Positions 33,540 to 41,216 of a DNA stretch of 64,000 nucleotides are shown one piece after another. Source of the stretch: Acidobacteriota bacterium (GTDB lineage: Bacteria > Acidobacteriota > Thermoanaerobaculia > Multivoradales > UBA5704); the NCBI GenBank assembly GCA_040005235.1, contig JBDTZG010000005.1:64001-128000 (forward strand), in the 5' to 3' direction. The notes below the pieces were generated by a model. That model was not told the origin of the DNA. It searched no databases and saw only the letters and a list, made by a program, of their open reading frames with translations. The position numbers and the translations under genes are program-made. Every line of letters begins with the position of its first letter. Position 1 is the stretch's first letter.

Positions 33540-34934
33540 ATGGCATTCCATAGGCGTCACGCCCTCTCCGTATTGCGATTGGCGGTGCCGGTCGGACTGG
33601 CGCTCGTCGGCTGGATGCTCAGCGTTTCCACCAACCGGTTGGAAGCCTATAATCGCTCGCCGTTCCCGGTAACCTCCATTCCCGCCTTCCGCGAGGAGTT
33701 CGCCCCGCGGCTCGCTTCTCCGACCGCCACGTCGCGATGGCTCGATCGCGCCCGGGTCCCGGTCGAATATTCGCTGAACCGCGGCGAGACCGTCCCTACG
33801 CTGTTCACACGCTTAGGCCTTGAAGGGGCGGACGCCGAGCAGGCGGTCGCCGCTTTTTCTCGCGATCTCGACCCCCGTCGGCTGCGCGCCGGCAACCGGT
33901 TTTCTGCATATTTTGGGCCACGGGCGACTTTGGCCGGCCTCGACCTTACGGTGTCGGGCGTGGGGCGGCTCGAAATGGCAAGGGGCACCAGCGGCTGGAA
34001 GTCCCGGTGGCGGGATTTCGCCCGCACCTCTCGGCTCCGCGTGGTCCGCGGCTCAATCGACGGCGCGTTCGACTCGTCGGTCCAGGCGGCCGGCGGCCCG
34101 CCGTCGCTAGCCTATCGGATCGCCGAAATTCTCCAATGGGACGTCGATTTCGCGCGCGATCTCCATCGTGGCGATCGGTTCGAAGCGCTGTACGAAGAGG
34201 TGCTCGTCGACGGCAAACCCTACGGAGTGCAGAAGGTGATCGCGGTCGCCTACGAGGGCGATGGTGGCCGGAAAGAGGCGATCCGTTTCGGTACGGACGG
34301 CACTTTTTACGACGGCGAAGGCCAGCCTCTGCGCAAAATGTTTCTGCGCTCGCCGCTGCGTTACTCCCACATCACCTCGCGCTTCAGCATGCGCCGGTTC
34401 CATCCGGTGCTCGGCGTCTTTCGGCCGCACTATGGGATCGACTATGGAGCCCCGATCGGCACGCCGGTCCAATCCACGGCGGGCGGCGTGGTCGTCTCCG
34501 CGGGTTTCGAGCGAGGGGGCGGCAACGTGGTGAAGGTCCGCCATGCGGACGATTACGTGACGGCCTACCTGCATCTTTCGCGGTTCGGCAGCGGCATTCG
34601 GCCGGGAGCGCGGGTCCATCAGGGCGACACCATCGCTTACACCGGAATGACCGGTCTCGCGACCGGACCGCACCTCGACTACCGGGTTCAGCATCAAGGG
34701 CGCTGGATCGACCCGCTCTCGCTCACCAGCGTCCGAGATCAGGATCTGCCGTCCCGCCAGCTCGCGTCGTTCCGCGGTTGGCGGAACGAGGTGCGTCGGG
34801 CATGGGTCTCCGGTCAGGTCGACCGGCTGGGGGGCGCCCTGGGCCTGCCGGCTCCGCTATCCGGGGCGCCGCAGATGGCGGGCCGACGCGTTCCGGCCGG
34901 TAGTACGGCGACCCCGGTCGTCGTCGCTCGCTAG
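33540..34934 (+). CDS. M23 family peptidoglycan DD-endopeptidase (MepM-like)
   Basis: HYGIDYGAP, YLHLS, GLATGPHLDY. Confidence 0.9.
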   Translation: MAFHRRHALSVLRLAVPVGLALVGWMLSVSTNRLEAYNRSPFPVTSIPAFREEFAPRLASPTATSRWLDRARVPVEYSLNRGETVPTLFTRLGLEGADAEQAVAAFSRDLDPRRLRAGNRFSAYFGPRATLAGLDLTVSGVGRLEMARGTSGWKSRWRDFARTSRLRVVRGSIDGAFDSSVQAAGGPPSLAYRIAEILQWDVDFARDLHRGDRFEALYEEVLVDGKPYGVQKVIAVAYEGDGGRKEAIRFGTDGTFYDGEGQPLRKMFLRSPLRYSHITSRFSMRRFHPVLGVFRPHYGIDYGAPIGTPVQSTAGGVVVSAGFERGGGNVVKVRHADDYVTAYLHLSRFGSGIRPGARVHQGDTIAYTGMTGLATGPHLDYRVQHQGRWIDPLSLTSVRDQDLPSRQLASFRGWRNEVRRAWVSGQVDRLGGALGLPAPLSGAPQMAGRRVPAGSTATPVVVAR

Positions 34935-34942
34935 GGCGTAAC

Positions 34943-35926
34943 ATGCGCTGTCTCGCCTGGTGCCGCGTAGATCTGGCGGGCGGAACGCTCGACATCTGGC
35001 CGCTCGGGTTGGCGTTTCCCGGCGCCCGGACGGTGAACGTCGCGATCGACGTCGCGGTGCGCCTAACGCTGGTTCCGAGTCCTGACGGGCACTATCAGGT
35101 CCGCCAGTCGGGGACCGAGATCGTCGCCCCTTCTCTTTCCGCTCTCTCCGCGCGGCAAGACTCGGCGTTGATTGGTGTCTTTGCCGAAGCTCTCGACCTG
35201 CCCCCTTTTTGCTTGGATCTCGCGAGCGACTCGCCGCGCGGCGGGGGATTGGGCGGCAGCTCGGCGATCGGTGTTGCGTTTCTTGCTCTCGCCGAGGAGG
35301 TTTTCGACCTGCCGCGCTCCTCGGCCGCCGAGCGAACCCACCTCGCGCGCGACCTCGAAGCCCGGTTGATGGGTCTGCCGACCGGCCTTCAAGATCACTA
35401 CCCCGCTTTGTTGGGCGGAGCGCTCGAGATTCTGCACCGGCCCGGTGGGGAACAGGTTCGCCGACTCGCGGTGGATCTCGATGCGCTGTCGGATCACCTG
35501 TTGTTGGTCGACACGGGTGCGAGCCATTTCTCGGCCGGCCAGAACTGGCAGGTCGTCCGCCGCTGCCTGGAAAAGGACCCCGAGGTCTGCTCCGCACTAG
35601 GTGAGATCGCCGAGGTGGCCGAAGCGATGGCCGAGGCGCTCGAACGAAACGATTTTCCCCAGGCCGGCCGCCTGCTGCGCCGCGAATGGCAGGCGCGCAG
35701 CCGTTTGGCGGAGGGGATCTCGACCCCGAAGATCGAAGAACTTCTCGATCGCTCGGCGGCGCTCGGTGGCTGGGGAGGCAAGGCGTGTGGAGCGGGGGCC
35801 GGCGGCTGCGTCGCGCTGCTCGTTCCGGCCGAAAGGAAAGAACAGATCGCAGCCGAGATGGAGAAGTCGGGCGGTCGCGTAGTTCCCGCCCGCGCGGTCG
35901 CGGGGCCGCTCGAGCTGTTCGATTAG
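34943..35926 (+). CDS. GHMP kinase (HddA heptose-7-phosphate kinase-like)
   Basis: RVDLAGGTLDIWP, PRGGGLGGSSA, TGLQDHY, KACGAGAGG. Confidence 0.82.
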   Translation: MRCLAWCRVDLAGGTLDIWPLGLAFPGARTVNVAIDVAVRLTLVPSPDGHYQVRQSGTEIVAPSLSALSARQDSALIGVFAEALDLPPFCLDLASDSPRGGGLGGSSAIGVAFLALAEEVFDLPRSSAAERTHLARDLEARLMGLPTGLQDHYPALLGGALEILHRPGGEQVRRLAVDLDALSDHLLLVDTGASHFSAGQNWQVVRRCLEKDPEVCSALGEIAEVAEAMAEALERNDFPQAGRLLRREWQARSRLAEGISTPKIEELLDRSAALGGWGGKACGAGAGGCVALLVPAERKEQIAAEMEKSGGRVVPARAVAGPLELFD

Positions 35927-35940
35927 GCCCCTCCAAGAGC

Positions 35941-35983
35941 CAAAAACACGAAAGCCGGCCGGACCTTTCGGTCGAGCCGGCTT
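35941..35983 (-). terminator. intrinsic terminator between convergent genes
   Basis: AAGCCGGC...GCCGGCTT stem with inner GACC/GGTC; T-run on the minus strand. Confidence 0.65.
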
Positions 35984-36007: not shown

Positions 36008-37399
36008 TCAGCGGTTCTTGGCGCGCTGCGCCAGGATCTGCTCCGCCTGTTCGCTGGTCATGTTCGGACCGAGGGTGATGCTCAGAACGTCCGTCCAGCC
36101 GTTCGCGGTGGATTCGCGGTAGAGAATCTTGTCGTCCTGCAACCAACTGACGATCAGGGAATCGCCGTGGGTCGAGGTGTAAATGCTAGGCACGGCGTCG
36201 CCGGTGTCCGGAACCGGAAGATCGACGGCGGTATGGAGCGCAAGCGCATGCCCCGGGTTTTCCACCGCCGGCTCGGCCGTCGGCGTCGCCATGACCTCGG
36301 CGATCCGGTAGGCCAAGTTTTGCTGGCGTCCGCCACGCCCGCCTAAGGCGTCCGCACCAATCTCGATGATCTGAGAACGGATAGCGTCGGCAAGGCGGCG
36401 AACTTGACCCGGAGCATAACGGCTTCCAATCTCGATGATCTGGGAGCGAATTTGTTCCGCAAGGAAACCTCTGATGCTCGGATGAAGGGTACTTCCAATC
36501 TCGATGATCTGCGAACGTATCGCATCGGCGAGTAGCGAAACCGGAGTCGGGATTCGGGGAAAAGTGAGGATCTTTGCGCGCACCCGAGCCGCGATGTCCG
36601 ATAGATCGACTGGCATTACATCGATCTCTACCGTATTCAGGCGCTCGGTCTGTGAGTTCACGAACGTCGCAACCGTGGAACCTTCGTCGCCAAGCTGAAT
36701 GGATGGCGCGTGGAGAAGCGACCCGGTCGGAATGTCGAGGACTCTATCGCCACCCCCTTCCGCCAGATCGTCCAACAAGAAGACGGGGTTCCAACCAAGG
36801 TAAACGCCGTCGATCAAGATGACCGGTGCGTAAACAGCGCGGTCCTCCGCCCCCGTCGTTTCCCACCAGACGGTCTCAACGATGGTTCGATAGTGACGCT
36901 CGGGAGCACCGGCGGCGCCTGTGAGCTCGAAGGTATCCCGGCTCACTGCAATCCGAGGGAAACTTTTGAAGCTATACCGGTCGCCGGAGATCTGAACTAC
37001 GTCACCAAACTCGCCATCCGTGAGGTTCGTCAGATAGAGAACGGAATGGAGAGGGTTGATGCGGCTCTCCCAGACCAGAAAAATACTCTTCGACGACTCC
37101 TCGAAGAACAAGGAGGGAGAACTCTCGATATCGTTGCCACCGGTTCCTGGAACGAGCATCCGCTGCGTGGTCGGTCCGTCGGTTCCAGGTCGCGTCAGGT
37201 CCAGGGCGAGCACCACGACATCGGTCTGAGCAAAGGCGGCGCTGGGAAACAGGTCTCGATACACCCCGGCCTGCACTCGATACAATTCGCCGTTCGAACC
37301 CAGTGCGACATCGTGCGCGTCGGCACGAACCGGCGCTAAAGCCGCGAGTCCGATGACAAGAAGGATCTGGATGGTTCGTTGCATCTTCATCGATCTCAC
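36008..37399 (-). CDS. secreted hypothetical protein with three 23-aa-period IRSQIIEIG repeats
   Basis: Signal peptide (..ILLVIGLAALAPVRADA); GTGA overlap with the TPR gene; CCAATCTCGATGATCTG at 36357, 36426 and 36495. Confidence 0.8.
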   Translation of the reverse strand: MRSMKMQRTIQILLVIGLAALAPVRADAHDVALGSNGELYRVQAGVYRDLFPSAAFAQTDVVVLALDLTRPGTDGPTTQRMLVPGTGGNDIESSPSLFFEESSKSIFLVWESRINPLHSVLYLTNLTDGEFGDVVQISGDRYSFKSFPRIAVSRDTFELTGAAGAPERHYRTIVETVWWETTGAEDRAVYAPVILIDGVYLGWNPVFLLDDLAEGGGDRVLDIPTGSLLHAPSIQLGDEGSTVATFVNSQTERLNTVEIDVMPVDLSDIAARVRAKILTFPRIPTPVSLLADAIRSQIIEIGSTLHPSIRGFLAEQIRSQIIEIGSRYAPGQVRRLADAIRSQIIEIGADALGGRGGRQQNLAYRIAEVMATPTAEPAVENPGHALALHTAVDLPVPDTGDAVPSIYTSTHGDSLIVSWLQDDKILYRESTANGWTDVLSITLGPNMTSEQAEQILAQRAKNR

Positions 37400-38316
37400 G
37401 CTTTCAGGTTGATCAGCTTGCGGACATCGATTGCGAGCAGGAAGTCCGGAAGATAACGGTCATTCGGGAAGAATCGTTCTTGAAGGTCGAGGAAATGCTC
37501 GTGCGCGACGCCGGAGTCGTGAGCGAGATTCGCGGCCTCTCCCAGCAGGTATAGGGCATTCTTGACGACGTCGTTATCGCCTACGCTCTCTGCAATCTGC
37601 AGCGCAATAAGGCCATGTCGGTAGGCCGCGCGATAGCGACCCACTTCAAGTAGTGCAAAGCAGAGGCTCATATGAGGCCCACGCTCAAATCCGCGAGCGC
37701 CCAGGGAACGCAGCGTCCGGAGCGACTGGTAGAGATCACGAAAGCCGTCGGCAAAGCGTCCTTCGACGGTTCGACAGTATCCGAGGTTCTCGAGTATGAG
37801 CGCACGCTCCAGTTTTCGTTCTGAAGGCATCAGTTTCAACGCCTGTTCGTACTCCGCCAGGGCCTGGTCGAAATAGCTCTCGGCGGCCAGGATGTTCCCG
37901 ATGCTGTTGTGCGAGACGGCCTTCCAATCATCGCGACCGAGAACTACGGCTCGATCCAACGAAATCCGGGCGTAGAAAAGGCCCTTCTTGAAGGCCTTTC
38001 GAAGCTCGTGGGCGTGTGCCAGGTTGTAGGCTGCGAGCCAGCAGTTTTCGAGGTCGGTATTGCGCATAAGGATCTCGCGCAACCGGATCAGATCGCCATC
38101 CGAGATCGCCCCGGTCTCGATTTCGACCGCGGCAAGGTTGCAGAAGGCGCGGTCGATCAGGCGTTCCTCGCCATCCTCGCGCGCCCGAACGAGCGCTTCG
38201 TCGAAGAGACGGTGGGCGACTTCCAGGTCGCCTTGATTCAGGGACTTGAGGCCCCGCTCGCGCAGGATTTCGTAGGTAGCGGTCGTTTCGATCAGATCCA
38301 TCGTAGAGATCCCCAC
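37396..38316 (-). CDS. tetratricopeptide-repeat protein, no signal peptide
   Basis: TPR-like helices: RAFCNLAAV, AAYNLAHAH, SHNSIGNIL..FDQALAEYEQAL, ILENLGYC, ALYLLGEA. Alternative start at 38301. Confidence 0.85.
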   Translation of the reverse strand: MGISTMDLIETTATYEILRERGLKSLNQGDLEVAHRLFDEALVRAREDGEERLIDRAFCNLAAVEIETGAISDGDLIRLREILMRNTDLENCWLAAYNLAHAHELRKAFKKGLFYARISLDRAVVLGRDDWKAVSHNSIGNILAAESYFDQALAEYEQALKLMPSERKLERALILENLGYCRTVEGRFADGFRDLYQSLRTLRSLGARGFERGPHMSLCFALLEVGRYRAAYRHGLIALQIAESVGDNDVVKNALYLLGEAANLAHDSGVAHEHFLDLQERFFPNDRYLPDFLLAIDVRKLINLKA

Positions 38317-38688
38317 TCACTCACCCGACTCGTCGGAGCGACGTTCGAGCTGCTCTCGTTTGAAGGCTACGAAATCCTCGACCTCGCGCTGTGCGGCCTC
38401 GTCCAGGCTGCTCAGGTCGCGGGCGACGCGGAGCGCACGGGTCGAAGCCTCGTTGGCTTGATTCACCTCGTCGAAGAACTCACCGATCGAGAGCTTGAAC
38501 TCGGCGACGATGCGGAACAGGGTGTCCAGGCTCACCCGGTACTCACCCTTCTCCATGCGGGAAAGGTCGGACTGCTGGATGCCGAGACGGGAAGAGAGCT
38601 CCACCTGCGTCAACTTATGGTCGCGACGGAGCTGCCGTATCTTCCGGCCGACGAGCTGGACCTGGCGAATCTTGGGCGAAGCGATCAT
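38317..38688 (-). CDS. XRE-family HTH transcriptional regulator
   Basis: GRKIRQLRRDHKLTQVELSSRLGIQQSDLSRMEKGEYRVSLDTL. Confidence 0.92.
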   Translation of the reverse strand: MIASPKIRQVQLVGRKIRQLRRDHKLTQVELSSRLGIQQSDLSRMEKGEYRVSLDTLFRIVAEFKLSIGEFFDEVNQANEASTRALRVARDLSSLDEAAQREVEDFVAFKREQLERRSDESGE

Positions 38689-38803
38689 GTCGACTCATCT
38701 CACTCGGAGCGGCTATGTCAAAATGGCATAGAGACGCCGGTTTGGATGGAAGAATACCGCCGGAATGGACAGACGTCAATCGATGCGTCGGTGAACGGGA
38801 AGA

Positions 38804-38828
38804 GCCGTGCCCGAAAGCCGGGCACGGC
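38804..38828 (-). terminator. hairpin downstream of the peptide gene
   Basis: GCCGTGCCCG-AAAGC-CGGGCACGGC, a perfect 10-bp stem 10 nt after the stop. Confidence 0.65.
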
Positions 38829-38838
38829 CAAAGGCGGA

Positions 38839-38985
38839 CTAGCCGATATCGACGATATGCGCGCCGATGTCGGAGGGCGGCGGCGCCGGGTTACCGAGAT
38901 CGATGATCTGGGCGTGAATTCCACCGGCCACGGCGTCCAGCCGGGCTGGAGCGAAACGGGTGCTGCGGGGGGTAGCTTTCTTCAT
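38839..38985 (-). CDS. 48-aa peptide precursor with a double-glycine-type leader and two related core motifs
   Basis: AAGGGAAGG RBS; MKKATPRSTRFAPARLDAVAGG|IHAQIIDLG-NPAPPPSD-IGAHIVDIG*. It is the 3' end of track ORF 38839..39507. Confidence 0.75.
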   Translation of the reverse strand: MKKATPRSTRFAPARLDAVAGGIHAQIIDLGNPAPPPSDIGAHIVDIG

Positions 38986-39330
38986 GAATGGCCTTCCCTT
39001 CGTGTTCGGCCAGGGGCGATTCCCCGAGCCGAGCTGCATAGCGCTCGCGCGCCTAATGGTACTGTACGGATCAGTCGGCTGAAGCGTTTTAGATCCAAAC
39101 AAGGGGTAGATCCCGGCGCACTTCTCAACCGCTCCGCATCTGTAGACTCCAATGCGGGGAACCGGCGGCGACACGGGTCTCAATGTCTGGGGAGTCTCAG
39201 TCTGCGAGGACCGGCGAATTGCGCTCGCTTGCCGGCGCGAGAGGTGACGGAAGTGCTCCGAGACCAACACGTGGTCACCCGGTCGGTCACAGCACCGTTC
39301 GAAGCCCAGAAGGGACTTCTGGCGGCCTGC

Positions 39331-39865
39331 GGAATTCTTCTTGGGCTGAGCGAAAAGCTCCGCTTCTAGAGCGGAGAACTCCGGGTCTTGGGCGGAAATC
39401 TCCTGGCGTTCGGCGGAATTCTCCCCGGACTCCCCGAAACGCTCCGTGGATTCCCCGGAACTCTCCTCGAGCTCGCAGGAAAACTCCTCCTGTTCGGAGG
39501 AATGCACCTTGTCCTACGCGGAATCATCCGGAGATCCCACGGTGTACTCCGCCAGGGTAACGGCCTTTTCCGGTGATTTAGAGGAGCATTCCGGAGAGCC
39601 GGAGGAGTTTTCCTGAGAGCCAGAGGAAGCATCCTGTGGATCAGAGGTGCCTTCCTGGAATCCAAAGTAGCCTTCCTCGGAAGTCCAGGGGTGGTCCTGG
39701 AGTCCGGCGGGATATACCGCGAAAACGACGGAGCTTTCCTGCCAACCCAGGGATCATTCCGCTGAAGGCGATTTGTTTTCCGCTGAGTTTAAGGAGCGTT
39801 CCGCGCACCCTACAGGCCGATCCGTTGCTTGACCGGAGCGTTCCGCGCATTCTCCGCAGTCTTCC
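39331..39865. repeat. 26-unit, 21-bp-phased array of GGA-N4-TCC-like cores with variable 11-bp linkers
   Basis: Cores checked at 39331+21n (n=0-25), e.g. GGAGAACTCC, GGAATTCTCC, GGAGTTTTCC, GGAGCGTTCC; no phase slips. Confidence 0.85.
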
Positions 39866-39931
39866 CGATTTCTGGGTGCTATTCTTCTCGGCCAAGAACA
39901 CAGATCGTTTCTTCCGAGAAAGGAGTTCCCG

Positions 39932-40300
39932 ATGGGCATCAAGTCCTACGCAGCCCGGTTGGACCGGTGGCAGAGCATGGTTCAGAACATCCAAGAAGTG
40001 CTCGGGGACCTTCCCGGAGTTGATGCGACCTTCGCGCTCGCCCGGCAGAAAGTCGCCGATTTGCGCGAGACGCAATCCGACTTGCAGCGCCTGGAGGGCC
40101 AGAGAAAAGAGGGCGTGGTCCGTCGCCGCCAGCTCGACCGGGAGGCCGAACAGGCGATCCGCCGGCTCTCAGCCCTCGCCCGCGCCCACATGGGGTTCTC
40201 CAACCCGGCGCTCGAAGCGTTCGGCGTCCGGTCCGAGGACCGCGGTCGCCGCGCTCGGAGCATCAAGGAGCCGGCGAAGGCCGAAGCGGCGCTGTCCTGA
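39932..40300 (+). CDS. small alpha-helical hypothetical protein (122 aa)
   Basis: AAAGGAG RBS; coiled-coil-like body; conserved-looking GFSNPALEAFGVR followed by a basic tail. Confidence 0.8.
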   Translation: MGIKSYAARLDRWQSMVQNIQEVLGDLPGVDATFALARQKVADLRETQSDLQRLEGQRKEGVVRRRQLDREAEQAIRRLSALARAHMGFSNPALEAFGVRSEDRGRRARSIKEPAKAEAALS

Positions 40301-40442
40301 CCCGACGGCGGGGTTGGCGCGCCCGGAAATGGCCGGCACCTGTAAACTCCGCCGCCGTGACCAGAATTTCCCCACGGTTCGACACGCTTCGGGCGTCTGA
40401 GGTTAGACGCTCCGGGTCCCTCGTGAATTCGGCCGCCGCCCG

Positions 40443-41216
40443 ATGAACAGCCGTCTCTTCCTGCTCAAAGAACTGGTCCGGCGCGACGTCAAGGGGCGCT
40501 ATGCCGGTTCCCTATTCGGCCTGGTCTGGTCGTTCGCGCAGCCGCTATGGATGTTGGCGCTGTTCGGGTTCGTGTTTTCCTCGATCATGAAGGTGCCGGC
40601 GGTCGGGGTGAAGAACGGCAACTTCGCGATCTTCCTGTTCAGCGGTCTGCTCCCGTGGATGGCGGTTCAGGAGGGGATCCTGCGCGCCACCACCTCGGTG
40701 ACCGACAATTCGAGTCTGGTCAAGAAATTGCGCTTTCCGGCCGAGATCCTCGGCCTCGCGGTCGTGCTCGCGGCGCTGGTCCACGAGGGGATCGCGATGC
40801 TCGCGTTCTTCGCCGTAGTCGCCTGGACCGGAGAGATCTCCTGGCGTGGCCTGCCGCTGCTGCTGCTGGCGATCCCGGTTCAGGTGGCGCTCACCCTGGG
40901 AGTGGGATGGCTGTTGGCCGCCATCCACGTCTTTTTTCGCGATGTCGCGCAAATCTTGGGGATGGGGCTGACGGCTTGGTTTTACCTGACGCCGATCGTC
41001 TATCCGGCGTCGTACGTGCCAGAACGGCTTCGTTTTTGGGTCGGGCTCAACCCGTTAACCGGCCTCGTCGGGCTCTACCGAGCGGCGCTTCTCGCCGATT
41101 CGCCGCTTCCTTCGCGCGCCTCCCTGGTGTCGCTCGGCCTTTTCGCATGCGGGTTTTTCGCTCTCGGCGGGTGGCTTTTCAGGCGCCTCAAGGCCAGCTT
41201 CGTCGACGAGATCTAG
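40443..41216 (+). CDS. wzm: ABC-2 polysaccharide export permease
   Basis: RDVKGRYAGSLFGLVWSF, LVKKLRFP, FYLTPIVYP, LNPL, FVDEI. Confidence 0.9.
   Translation: MNSRLFLLKELVRRDVKGRYAGSLFGLVWSFAQPLWMLALFGFVFSSIMKVPAVGVKNGNFAIFLFSGLLPWMAVQEGILRATTSVTDNSSLVKKLRFPAEILGLAVVLAALVHEGIAMLAFFAVVAWTGEISWRGLPLLLLAIPVQVALTLGVGWLLAAIHVFFRDVAQILGMGLTAWFYLTPIVYPASYVPERLRFWVGLNPLTGLVGLYRAALLADSPLPSRASLVSLGLFACGFFALGGWLFRRLKASFVDEI

Follow-up and report, generated by a model that had tools for sequence, protein, structure and literature searches.

In the classical RRNPP(A) systems the receptor is a single polypeptide, in which an N-terminal effector, either a helix-turn-helix (HTH) domain or a phosphatase, is followed by a C-terminal peptide-binding tetratricopeptide repeat (TPR) domain, and the cognate propeptide leaves the cell through Sec or PptAB and, once processed, is taken up again to bind to the TPR domain. 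Other exported peptides carry a double-glycine leader, which is approximately 15-30 amino acids (aa) long, ends in GG, GA or GS and has hydrophobic residues at positions -4 and -7. Here we compare with these systems a locus of four co-oriented open reading frames (ORFs) on the minus strand, located at positions 36008-38985 of a 64,000-nucleotide (nt) stretch of DNA, which is hereafter called the window and to which, as a whole, the main coordinates refer. The window is part of a 6.22-Mb, 140-contig, 100%-complete genome assembly from the Thermoanaerobaculia, which are abundant, uncultured soil and sediment Acidobacteriota and in which, to our knowledge, almost no gene function has been tested. 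The ORFs encode a 48-aa peptide, an XRE-family HTH protein (HTH), a TPR protein (TPR) and a protein with a signal peptide and three copies of the sequence IRSQIIEIG, which we named SEC; the terms "triad" and "cassette" both denote HTH-TPR-SEC. All four genes proposed in the initial annotation of the window were found. The sequencing runs listed as containing the stretch comprise two DNA runs of a single study, possibly the source sample, and no RNA run. Tentatively, and at a little short of an even chance in our own estimate, we read the locus as an autoregulated, XRE/TPR-controlled operon for a secreted propeller, accompanied by an accessory exported peptide that mimics a helix of the propeller protein.

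According to the work on the Bacillus plasmid pLS20 (PMC7430634), the Rco/Rap/Phr switch, a member of the RRNPP family, resembles the present locus in having a separate HTH repressor, an all-TPR partner and a nearby gene for an exported product of ~44-50 aa, and Rco also acts at its own promoter region, which is what we infer for HTH. In contrast to pLS20, the locus belongs to a diderm acidobacterium. Its peptide is made with a double-glycine leader, where pLS20 has a Sec-type pre-pro form, and is missing from most cassettes, and the output is a secreted propeller bearing the same motif as the peptide. Moreover, the TPR model consists of TPR helices throughout and lacks the Rap-type N-terminal domain. 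The likeness to the classical RRNPP(A) systems (PlcR-PapR, NprR-NprX, Rgg-SHP and AimR-AimP) consists in the combination of HTH and TPR modules with an adjacent small ORF, in an active motif at the C-terminus of the peptide and in occasional tandem duplication of the pheromone, the last two as given in PMC11343458. Those receptors are, however, single polypeptides, whereas HTH and TPR are separate here; the phylum is different (Bacillota and mobile elements there), the export route is different, and the peptide of the present locus is not obligatory. Peptides exported by double-glycine peptidase-containing ABC transporters (PCATs), such as class II microcins, bacteriocins and cyanobacterial peptides, share with ours a leader of ~22 residues ending in GG or GS and hydrophobic residues at -4 and -7. 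The core of our peptide is, however, very short and acidic with a proline-rich middle, it copies a motif of the neighbouring secreted protein, and no exporter or immunity gene is its neighbour.

The features of the locus are as follows, from the small gene to the end of SEC.

39017..39024, minus strand: conserved box GGGAATCG, from an alignment of 5 upstream regions
38992..39001, minus strand: purine-rich ribosome-binding site (RBS) of the small gene (GAAGGGAAGG), read from the sequence
38839..38985, minus strand: small gene, 48 aa, an ORF kept in 5/7 congeners
38803..38829, minus strand: terminator-like hairpin directly 3' of the small gene, from folding energy and conservation
38751..38779, minus strand: sigma-70-like promoter of HTH-TPR-SEC (TTGACG, 17 nt, TATTCT), from a consensus scan
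38713..38731, unstranded: palindromic operator-like site of 19 bp, downstream of the -10 box and ahead of the start codon of HTH
38317..38688, minus strand: XRE-family HTH, 123 aa, Pfam HTH_3
37396..38316, minus strand: TPR protein, 306 aa from GTG, Pfam TPR_12; probably 301 aa from the ATG at 38301
36008..37399, minus strand: SEC, 463-aa ORF (GTG at 37399); probable ATG at 37390 (MKMQ...), giving 460 aa
36341..36610, minus strand: predicted four-helix insert of SEC, residues 261-350, ~23-residue repeats
36494..36520, minus strand: motif copy 1, IRSQIIEIG, residues 291-299
36425..36451, minus strand: motif copy 2, IRSQIIEIG, residues 314-322
36356..36382, minus strand: motif copy 3, IRSQIIEIG, residues 337-345
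35955..35980, minus strand: hairpin after the SEC stop codon, -21.9 kcal/mol (56-nt stretch), z -2.15; likely the end of the operon

As called, the ORFs of the cassette abut or overlap, in agreement with the initial annotation. The N-termini of homologues, however, make the Met at 38301 (TPR), which is invariant, and the ATG at 37390 (SEC) the likely starts, and with these revised starts the genes are closely spaced and not overlapping.

The distribution of the cassette suggests that HTH-TPR-SEC is an operon kept throughout the class Thermoanaerobaculia and that its genes travel together. Homologues of SEC were detected in 37/41 related genomes, representing 24/26 genera; TPR lies directly upstream of all 46 SEC copies, and an HTH gene is detectable next to 38 of them (40 loci were fetched). 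In a phylum-wide sample SEC matches were obtained in 24/201 genomes. Full-length matches came from the same order only, and 10 genomes from other orders of the class matched with the N-terminal part alone (model positions 1-261). The loci of nine of these, all but G063, were fetched, and they contained upstream HTH and TPR genes in 9/9 cases and SEC, as detected by tblastn, in 7/9. In one family, two genomes that are 99-100% complete yielded neither a SEC nor a TPR orthologue. The named relatives of TPR belong to the Thermoanaerobaculia or Acidobacteriota.

The regulatory signals of the triad are conserved as well. The promoter TTGACG-17 nt-TATTCT is kept in 7 congeners, i.e. the members compared of the window's genus (hereafter g1; g5 and g6 are other genera), and boxes of the TTGACA type are present in most other genera. 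The operator-like site, 19 bp with exact palindrome arms, is also kept in the 7 congeners. Across the order, the pattern ATG-N9-CAT occurs in 33/39 upstream regions of HTH, compared with 0.64 expected from shuffles, and a tighter half-site form in 19/39, compared with 0.0 expected. The strict operator pattern occurs once in the 6.22-Mb genome; separately, the only other match to the loose half-site (ATGnCA-N3-TGnCAT) in the genome was noted at G000:C130:2742. The HTH protein itself matches Pfam HTH_3 with 44.6 bits (cut-off 23, E 1.5e-11), which places it in the XRE family as initially annotated; it has a conserved helical tail of ~50 aa and a weak match to phage repressors of the RstR type. 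The position and conservation of the palindrome suggest that HTH is probably a dedicated autorepressor of the operon. A phage or defence origin was considered and rejected: no relatives of TPR or of the peptide were found in a viral contig collection, and PADLOC gave only generic HTH and TPR matches.

The identity of the TPR protein also held, with TPR_12 at 50.3 bits (against 30.1, E 2.8e-13) and TPR_2 at 29.6 (against 27). Its AlphaFold2 model (predicted local distance difference test score, pLDDT, 95.4) is all-helical, with 15 helices forming ~7-8 repeats. The best structural matches are the TPR domains of LGN/Pins (template modelling score, TM, 0.56-0.69) and RapI (TM 0.63), and by sequence Pins/LGN (E 1e-12 to 4e-16) and Rap proteins (~1e-4) are matched; such matches are generic for TPR superhelices. 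None of the 48 TPR homologues has a hydrophobic N-terminus, and TPR is therefore predicted to be cytoplasmic. The separation of HTH and TPR into two proteins, already proposed in the initial annotation, was confirmed: each has an ORF of its own, in the window as in every locus fetched, and the best 120 of 472 TPR relatives are proteins of 283-336 aa with TPR Pfam domains only and no HTH domain. Among proteins of 537-2000 aa no TPR relatives were found, which is weak evidence. An apparent HTH-TPR fusion at locus L021 was discarded, a stop codon being present between the two parts. A complex prediction of TPR (47 alignment rows) with the peptide (5 rows) scored 0.01 against a mark of 0.32 and speaks neither for nor against binding.

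Regarding SEC, the signal peptide and the three IRSQIIEIG copies were found as described initially, and a signal-peptide-like N-terminus is present in 45/47 homologues. No Pfam or NCBIfam match was obtained for SEC, and a regular-expression search detected no Asp-box. The AlphaFold2 model, built with 47 homologues, is a beta-propeller (pLDDT 90.7, predicted TM score 0.88). Its structural neighbours are generic, namely CylK, PLL lectin, Elp2, integrin alpha and sialidases (Z 11-14.6, 209-267 aligned residues); Foldseek gave a probability of ~1 but TM of only 0.2-0.3, and neighbours in the ESM Atlas (scores 0.86-0.87), which can serve as leads only, carry BNR_4. The signal peptide and the model point to a Sec-exported, generic beta-propeller protein. 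While the overall fold is that of propeller lectins, sialidases and BNR-type proteins, SEC differs from the BNR/sialidase propellers in lacking a family match and an Asp-box, and its insert has no counterpart among the matches listed.

This insert is modelled as four helices at residues 261-274, 285-301, 304-322 and 330-350 (pLDDT of the block 90-97), and the motif copies form the C-terminal halves of helices 2 to 4. According to the model, the copies are packed helices of a folded domain and not an obvious peptide cargo. Helix 1, which we count as repeat 0, is degenerate in g1 and intact in many other genera. The SEC homologues from outside the order are ~100 residues shorter; the insert is absent in 9/9 and the motif was detected in 0/9. 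The alignments therefore suggest that the four-helix insert and its motif were acquired within this order and that the triad predates the motif. As a separate observation, the out-of-order proteins show a single R-x-x-[IV]-P-[ILV]-G element in the position of repeat 0, a region of uncertain alignment, and in L094 (one of the loci L088-L096) the frame ends with a second copy of this element.

For the comparison of repeats, a core of 8 residues (R-x-x-I-I-D/E-hydrophobic-G) was used. At least 2 copies of the core are present in 31/47 SEC proteins, and in 26 of these 31 all copies are identical. Within proteins, 61/70 core pairs are identical, with synonymous differences in 52 of the 61 (mean 2.16 of 8 codons); between proteins only 0.4% of 3170 pairs are identical, with 34 distinct cores in total. 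The three copies in the window likewise use different Arg and Ser codons. Since identical copies differ synonymously, their identity is kept by selection and not merely by recent gene conversion, while the core drifts between species. By our reading of a helical wheel, the second variable residue would lie on the hydrophobic face, so that contacts within one layer of a pseudo-symmetric bundle might account for the pattern; the homogeneity of the repeats could also stem from an external partner that they share. Tandem or nearby double cassettes were seen at L020, L034, L035, L037, L031 and L036; the SEC motifs of such neighbours differ from each other (RSNIIEIG and RHHLIDIG in L034), and each copy is internally homogeneous.

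The small ORF, whose translation is MKKATPRSTRFAPARLDAVAGGIHAQIIDLGNPAPPPSDIGAHIVDIG, consists of a 22-aa leader ending in LDAVAGG and a 26-aa acidic core (pI 4.4, net charge -3) with two motif copies, HAQIIDLG and GAHIVDIG. The comparisons show a genuine, conserved gene with its own RBS and terminator, as had been surmised, and one that is probably transcribed separately. It is found at the same place in 5/7 congeners (the window and 4 others), and is cleanly missing in L017, while in L014 unrelated sequence occupies its place. No indel disturbs its reading frame, and in the 5 congeners translation invariably stops right behind the second motif. dN was 0.22-0.43 between congener pairs, and dN/dS was 0.12-0.75, i.e. 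below 1 in 9/9 computable pairs (of 10). In addition, a collection of 5.8 billion proteins contains 13 clusters that share this architecture and are 48-52 aa long; no curated family matched the window peptide at E<=1 in Pfam or NCBIfam. In each of the 5 congeners with the gene, a comparable purine-rich box precedes the ATG. About 35 nt before the ATG, GGA-AT-G is kept in 5/5 upstream regions, and this box may be a promoter element of unknown type; a simple consensus scan revealed no sigma-70-like promoter ahead of the small gene, and the operator palindrome is absent upstream of it. The hairpin that follows the gene has an 11-bp GC stem (-24.2 kcal/mol, z -4.07, none of 200 shuffles as good) and is kept in the 5 congeners, with one compensatory change of a C-G to a U-A pair in L015.

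The leader ends in GG, has no hydrophobic core of the Sec type and, to judge from an alignment of 13 peptides, agrees with the double-glycine consensus, as the initial annotation had assumed. Positions -7 (Leu) and -2 (Gly) do not vary, at least 90% of the sequences have Val at -4 and Gly at -1, and E-L-x-x-V-x-G-G is found in P0012-P0014 and in the two g5 peptides (G011 and G472). A GG/GA cleavage site, as reported for class II microcins in PMC9746304, agrees with this leader. The peptide cores overall have 23-29 aa, a pI of 4.0-4.4 and a net charge of -3 to -5. The initial annotation reported no C39-peptidase exporter in the window, which is correct; one is present elsewhere in the genome, on contig C66, away from the peptide gene. 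It is a PCAT (795-aa frame, Peptidase_C39 89.9 bits, ABC_membrane, ABC_tran), which keeps the catalytic Cys and His motifs and is adjoined by a HlyD-like gene. At this place (L087, G000:C66:86000-101000) its neighbours were noted as the GAF/HlyD-like ORF and a 1535-aa DUF11/Calx-beta protein, and no small ORF with a GG leader was seen beside it on C66. GG-leader peptides seem to be common in this family of Thermoanaerobaculia: L082 (G310:C363) and L105 (G335:C172) contain small ORFs with textbook double-glycine leaders and other cores without the motif. The 3.1-kb locus L082 has no cassette gene, and the contig of L105 is just 2.4 kb long.

The motif shared by SEC and the small ORF is beyond chance. 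A loose pattern gave 268 matches in the six-frame translation of the genome, and only 7 stop-to-stop frames contain at least 2 of them; SEC and the small ORF, 1.4 kb apart, are two of these 7. The motif stands at the extreme C-terminus in 13/13 peptides of the g1 type and in 2/2 of the g5 type. A profile of the 13 peptides matched 11/300 genomes of the order (E<=0.001), comprising 5 small ORFs in g1, 2 in g5, 1 GG peptide in g6 without the acidic residue of the motif and 3 matches in frames of SEC size. Motif-bearing small ORFs are thus present in 7/300 genomes, and most cassettes have no peptide, contrary to the initial expectation that the peptide would accompany homologous HTH/TPR loci. A scan for GG leaders in 41 cassette loci gave motif peptides in only 6, which argues against an obligate signal of the RRNPP type, and no other peptide candidates appeared in the scans of these 41 loci. 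The g5 peptide, a homologue with a GG leader and a single copy of the motif at its C-terminus, is encoded ~145 nt beyond the end of SEC on its downstream side, past a strong terminator (G011, L027:1206-1352; G472, L102:1501-1638). The peptide is located downstream of SEC in 2/41 genomes (g5) and upstream of HTH in g1 (5/7), and its presence near the cassette at different positions suggests that linkage is kept despite relocation. Only one locus, L097, identical in sequence to L016, was obtained in a metagenome scan for peptide loci; genomic context covers 5 of the 13 peptide clusters, P0007-P0014 not being included. The peptide was also expected to co-vary with the internal repeats of SEC. No such match was found within the same genome: the cores are unlike the SEC core of their own genome, as seen in the window (RSQIIEIG in SEC vs HAQIIDLG and GAHIVDIG in the peptide).

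In the reading that we prefer, the XRE-type repressor would bind the palindrome just downstream of its own sigma-70-like promoter, as the conservation and position of this site suggest, and the cytoplasmic TPR would be its obligate partner, probably a co-regulator or anti-repressor comparable to Rap/Rco of pLS20. The output would be the Sec-exported beta-propeller. The peptide would be cut and exported by the C39-peptidase ABC exporter, to which the leader pattern and the single such exporter of the genome point, and its site of action would probably be extracytoplasmic, either at the helical module of SEC or beside it, where it would serve as a helix mimic or as a competitor for the same partner; this is the weakest step. 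We count in favour of such a scheme that the peptide and SEC, the two exported partners, are both predicted to be extracytoplasmic, and that TPR has no export signal. The peptide is most likely accessory, because it is sporadic, is not under the operator and is unlike the SEC core of its own genome; as an obligatory pheromone of the HTH/TPR pair it is unlikely. Several points weigh against our interpretation. The leader was assigned with the general consensus and not with a curated model, and NCBIfam gave no match at E<=10 for 8 peptides. The PCAT is present in 8/8 congeners, with or without the peptide, and is unlinked to it; the correlation is therefore uninformative and lends no specific support to peptide export. 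The binding of HTH to the palindrome and its contact with TPR are deduced from conservation and adjacency only, the contact of the peptide with SEC is conjectural, and a C-terminal motif with tandem core duplication is also seen in pheromone precursors of the RRNPP type, according to PMC11343458.

This last point leads to the RRNPP-like receptor system that the initial annotation had proposed. In such a split, Rco-Rap-Phr-like circuit, the re-imported peptide would bind TPR, TPR would release or capture the repressor, and SEC would follow cell density. A worked precedent exists in pLS20, where Rap makes direct contact with Rco and Phr* releases it (PMC7430634), TPR has the fold of peptide-binding TPR proteins (LGN/Pins TM up to 0.69, RapI 0.63, Rap by sequence ~1e-4), tandem duplicated pheromones are known (PMC11343458), and the C-terminal position of the motif (13/13 and 2/2) and the persistence of the peptide near the cassette in two genera would fit as well. 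While the split HTH/TPR pair and this proximity stand, the triad is found class-wide without peptide and without motif, and the rarity of the peptide (7/300 genomes, 6/41 loci), its own terminator, the lack of an operator upstream of its gene and the absence of anything in the same genome that varies along with its cores all speak against a signal of this kind. Export would use a GG leader and a PCAT, not Sec or PptAB, and, the host being a diderm acidobacterium, re-import would have to cross two membranes. RRNPPA systems are described for Bacillota in PMC11343458, and within the collection searched no literature was found that links RRNPP with Acidobacteria or Thermoanaerobaculia with double-glycine peptides. 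We therefore regard this circuit as unlikely; the general claim of a peptide signal fails by the criterion set in the initial annotation, a lack of the peptide at homologous loci, and a lineage-specific add-on is possible. A broader version, which to us is decidedly improbable, is peptide-based recognition or signalling, in which a species-specific helix motif is displayed in identical copies on the propeller and, in some lineages, also released as a free PCAT-exported peptide, to be read by the split XRE/TPR pair (Rco/Rap-like) or like-with-like between secreted proteins.

Another explanation is that the peptide is an antagonistic or competitive microcin-like product, copied from two SEC repeats and exported by a PCAT, with a role independent of the operon and the motif reflecting origin and not interaction. 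A GG/GA leader with a PCAT, a membrane fusion protein and an outer-membrane channel is the export route of class II microcins in Gram-negatives, as stated in PMC9746304; the genome has a PCAT and a HlyD-like gene, motif-free small ORFs with GG leaders occur in the family (L082 and L105), and the patchy distribution and fast evolution (dN 0.22-0.43) of the peptide would be in line with this. The cores are, however, short (23-29 aa) and acidic, compared with 75-120 aa for verified class II microcin precursors (PMC9746304), no immunity-like or exporter gene adjoins the peptide, its C-terminal motif is strictly conserved, and it has stayed beside the SEC cassette in two genera despite relocation; the proposal seems rather unlikely. 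Multi-core peptide precursors have identical copies within a protein and diverge between species. The SEC repeats, which selection keeps identical within a protein and which differ between species, might accordingly be cargo from which extracellular proteases free motif peptides, with the small ORF as a second, minimal precursor. We give this idea very little credence, considering that the repeats are modelled as packed helices in a folded insert (block pLDDT 90-97), that the alignment brought to notice no conserved cleavage motif at their flanks, and that the variable residue, which we place on the hydrophobic face, permits a purely structural cause of co-variation. Equally slight is the chance that the small ORF is merely what is left of a duplicated SEC, decaying and without function. 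Cassettes are often duplicated in tandem (L020, L034, L035 and L037) and the ORF is missing in 2/7 congeners, but dN/dS is below 1 in 9/9 computable pairs, the gene has kept its start, stop, RBS and terminator, no indel shifts the frame, and 13 clusters share the same architecture.

The analysis defines an unannotated, class-wide and apparently dedicated regulatory operon, comprising a putative XRE repressor, a TPR partner and a predicted secreted propeller, together with a small family of peptides with double-glycine leaders, so far undescribed, in which the candidate determinant of SEC is copied. The repeat pattern, a case of concerted evolution that is identical within a protein and divergent between species, is the signature expected of a specificity determinant. 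If peptide and repeats share a partner, the locus would offer a tractable entry to cell-cell or protein-protein recognition in the phylum, and we know of no recognition of such a kind in Acidobacteriota; if they do not, it would be a clean example of a small gene born from the repeat of a neighbour. Should the signalling or recognition reading be true, the locus would provide the first example outside Bacillota of a peptide circuit that is RRNPP-like or kin-recognition-like, with a pheromone motif inside its own output protein.

The flanks of the locus (33540-35926 and 40443-41216) are ordinary. They hold genes for an M23 peptidase that includes a Csd3-like domain and for a GHMP-family kinase, the latter convergent with SEC; on the 40443-41216 side an ABC-2 permease gene runs divergently from the cassette. 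Five congeners (L014, L016, L017, L018 and L019) share an upstream flank that aligns among them. Between the small gene and the ABC-2 permease, a stretch of ~1.3 kb (39000-40400) contains long ORFs on both strands without a Pfam match and degenerate 21-nt tandem repeats at 39371-39632; since it is common only to L015 among the 7 congeners, it looks like an insertion.

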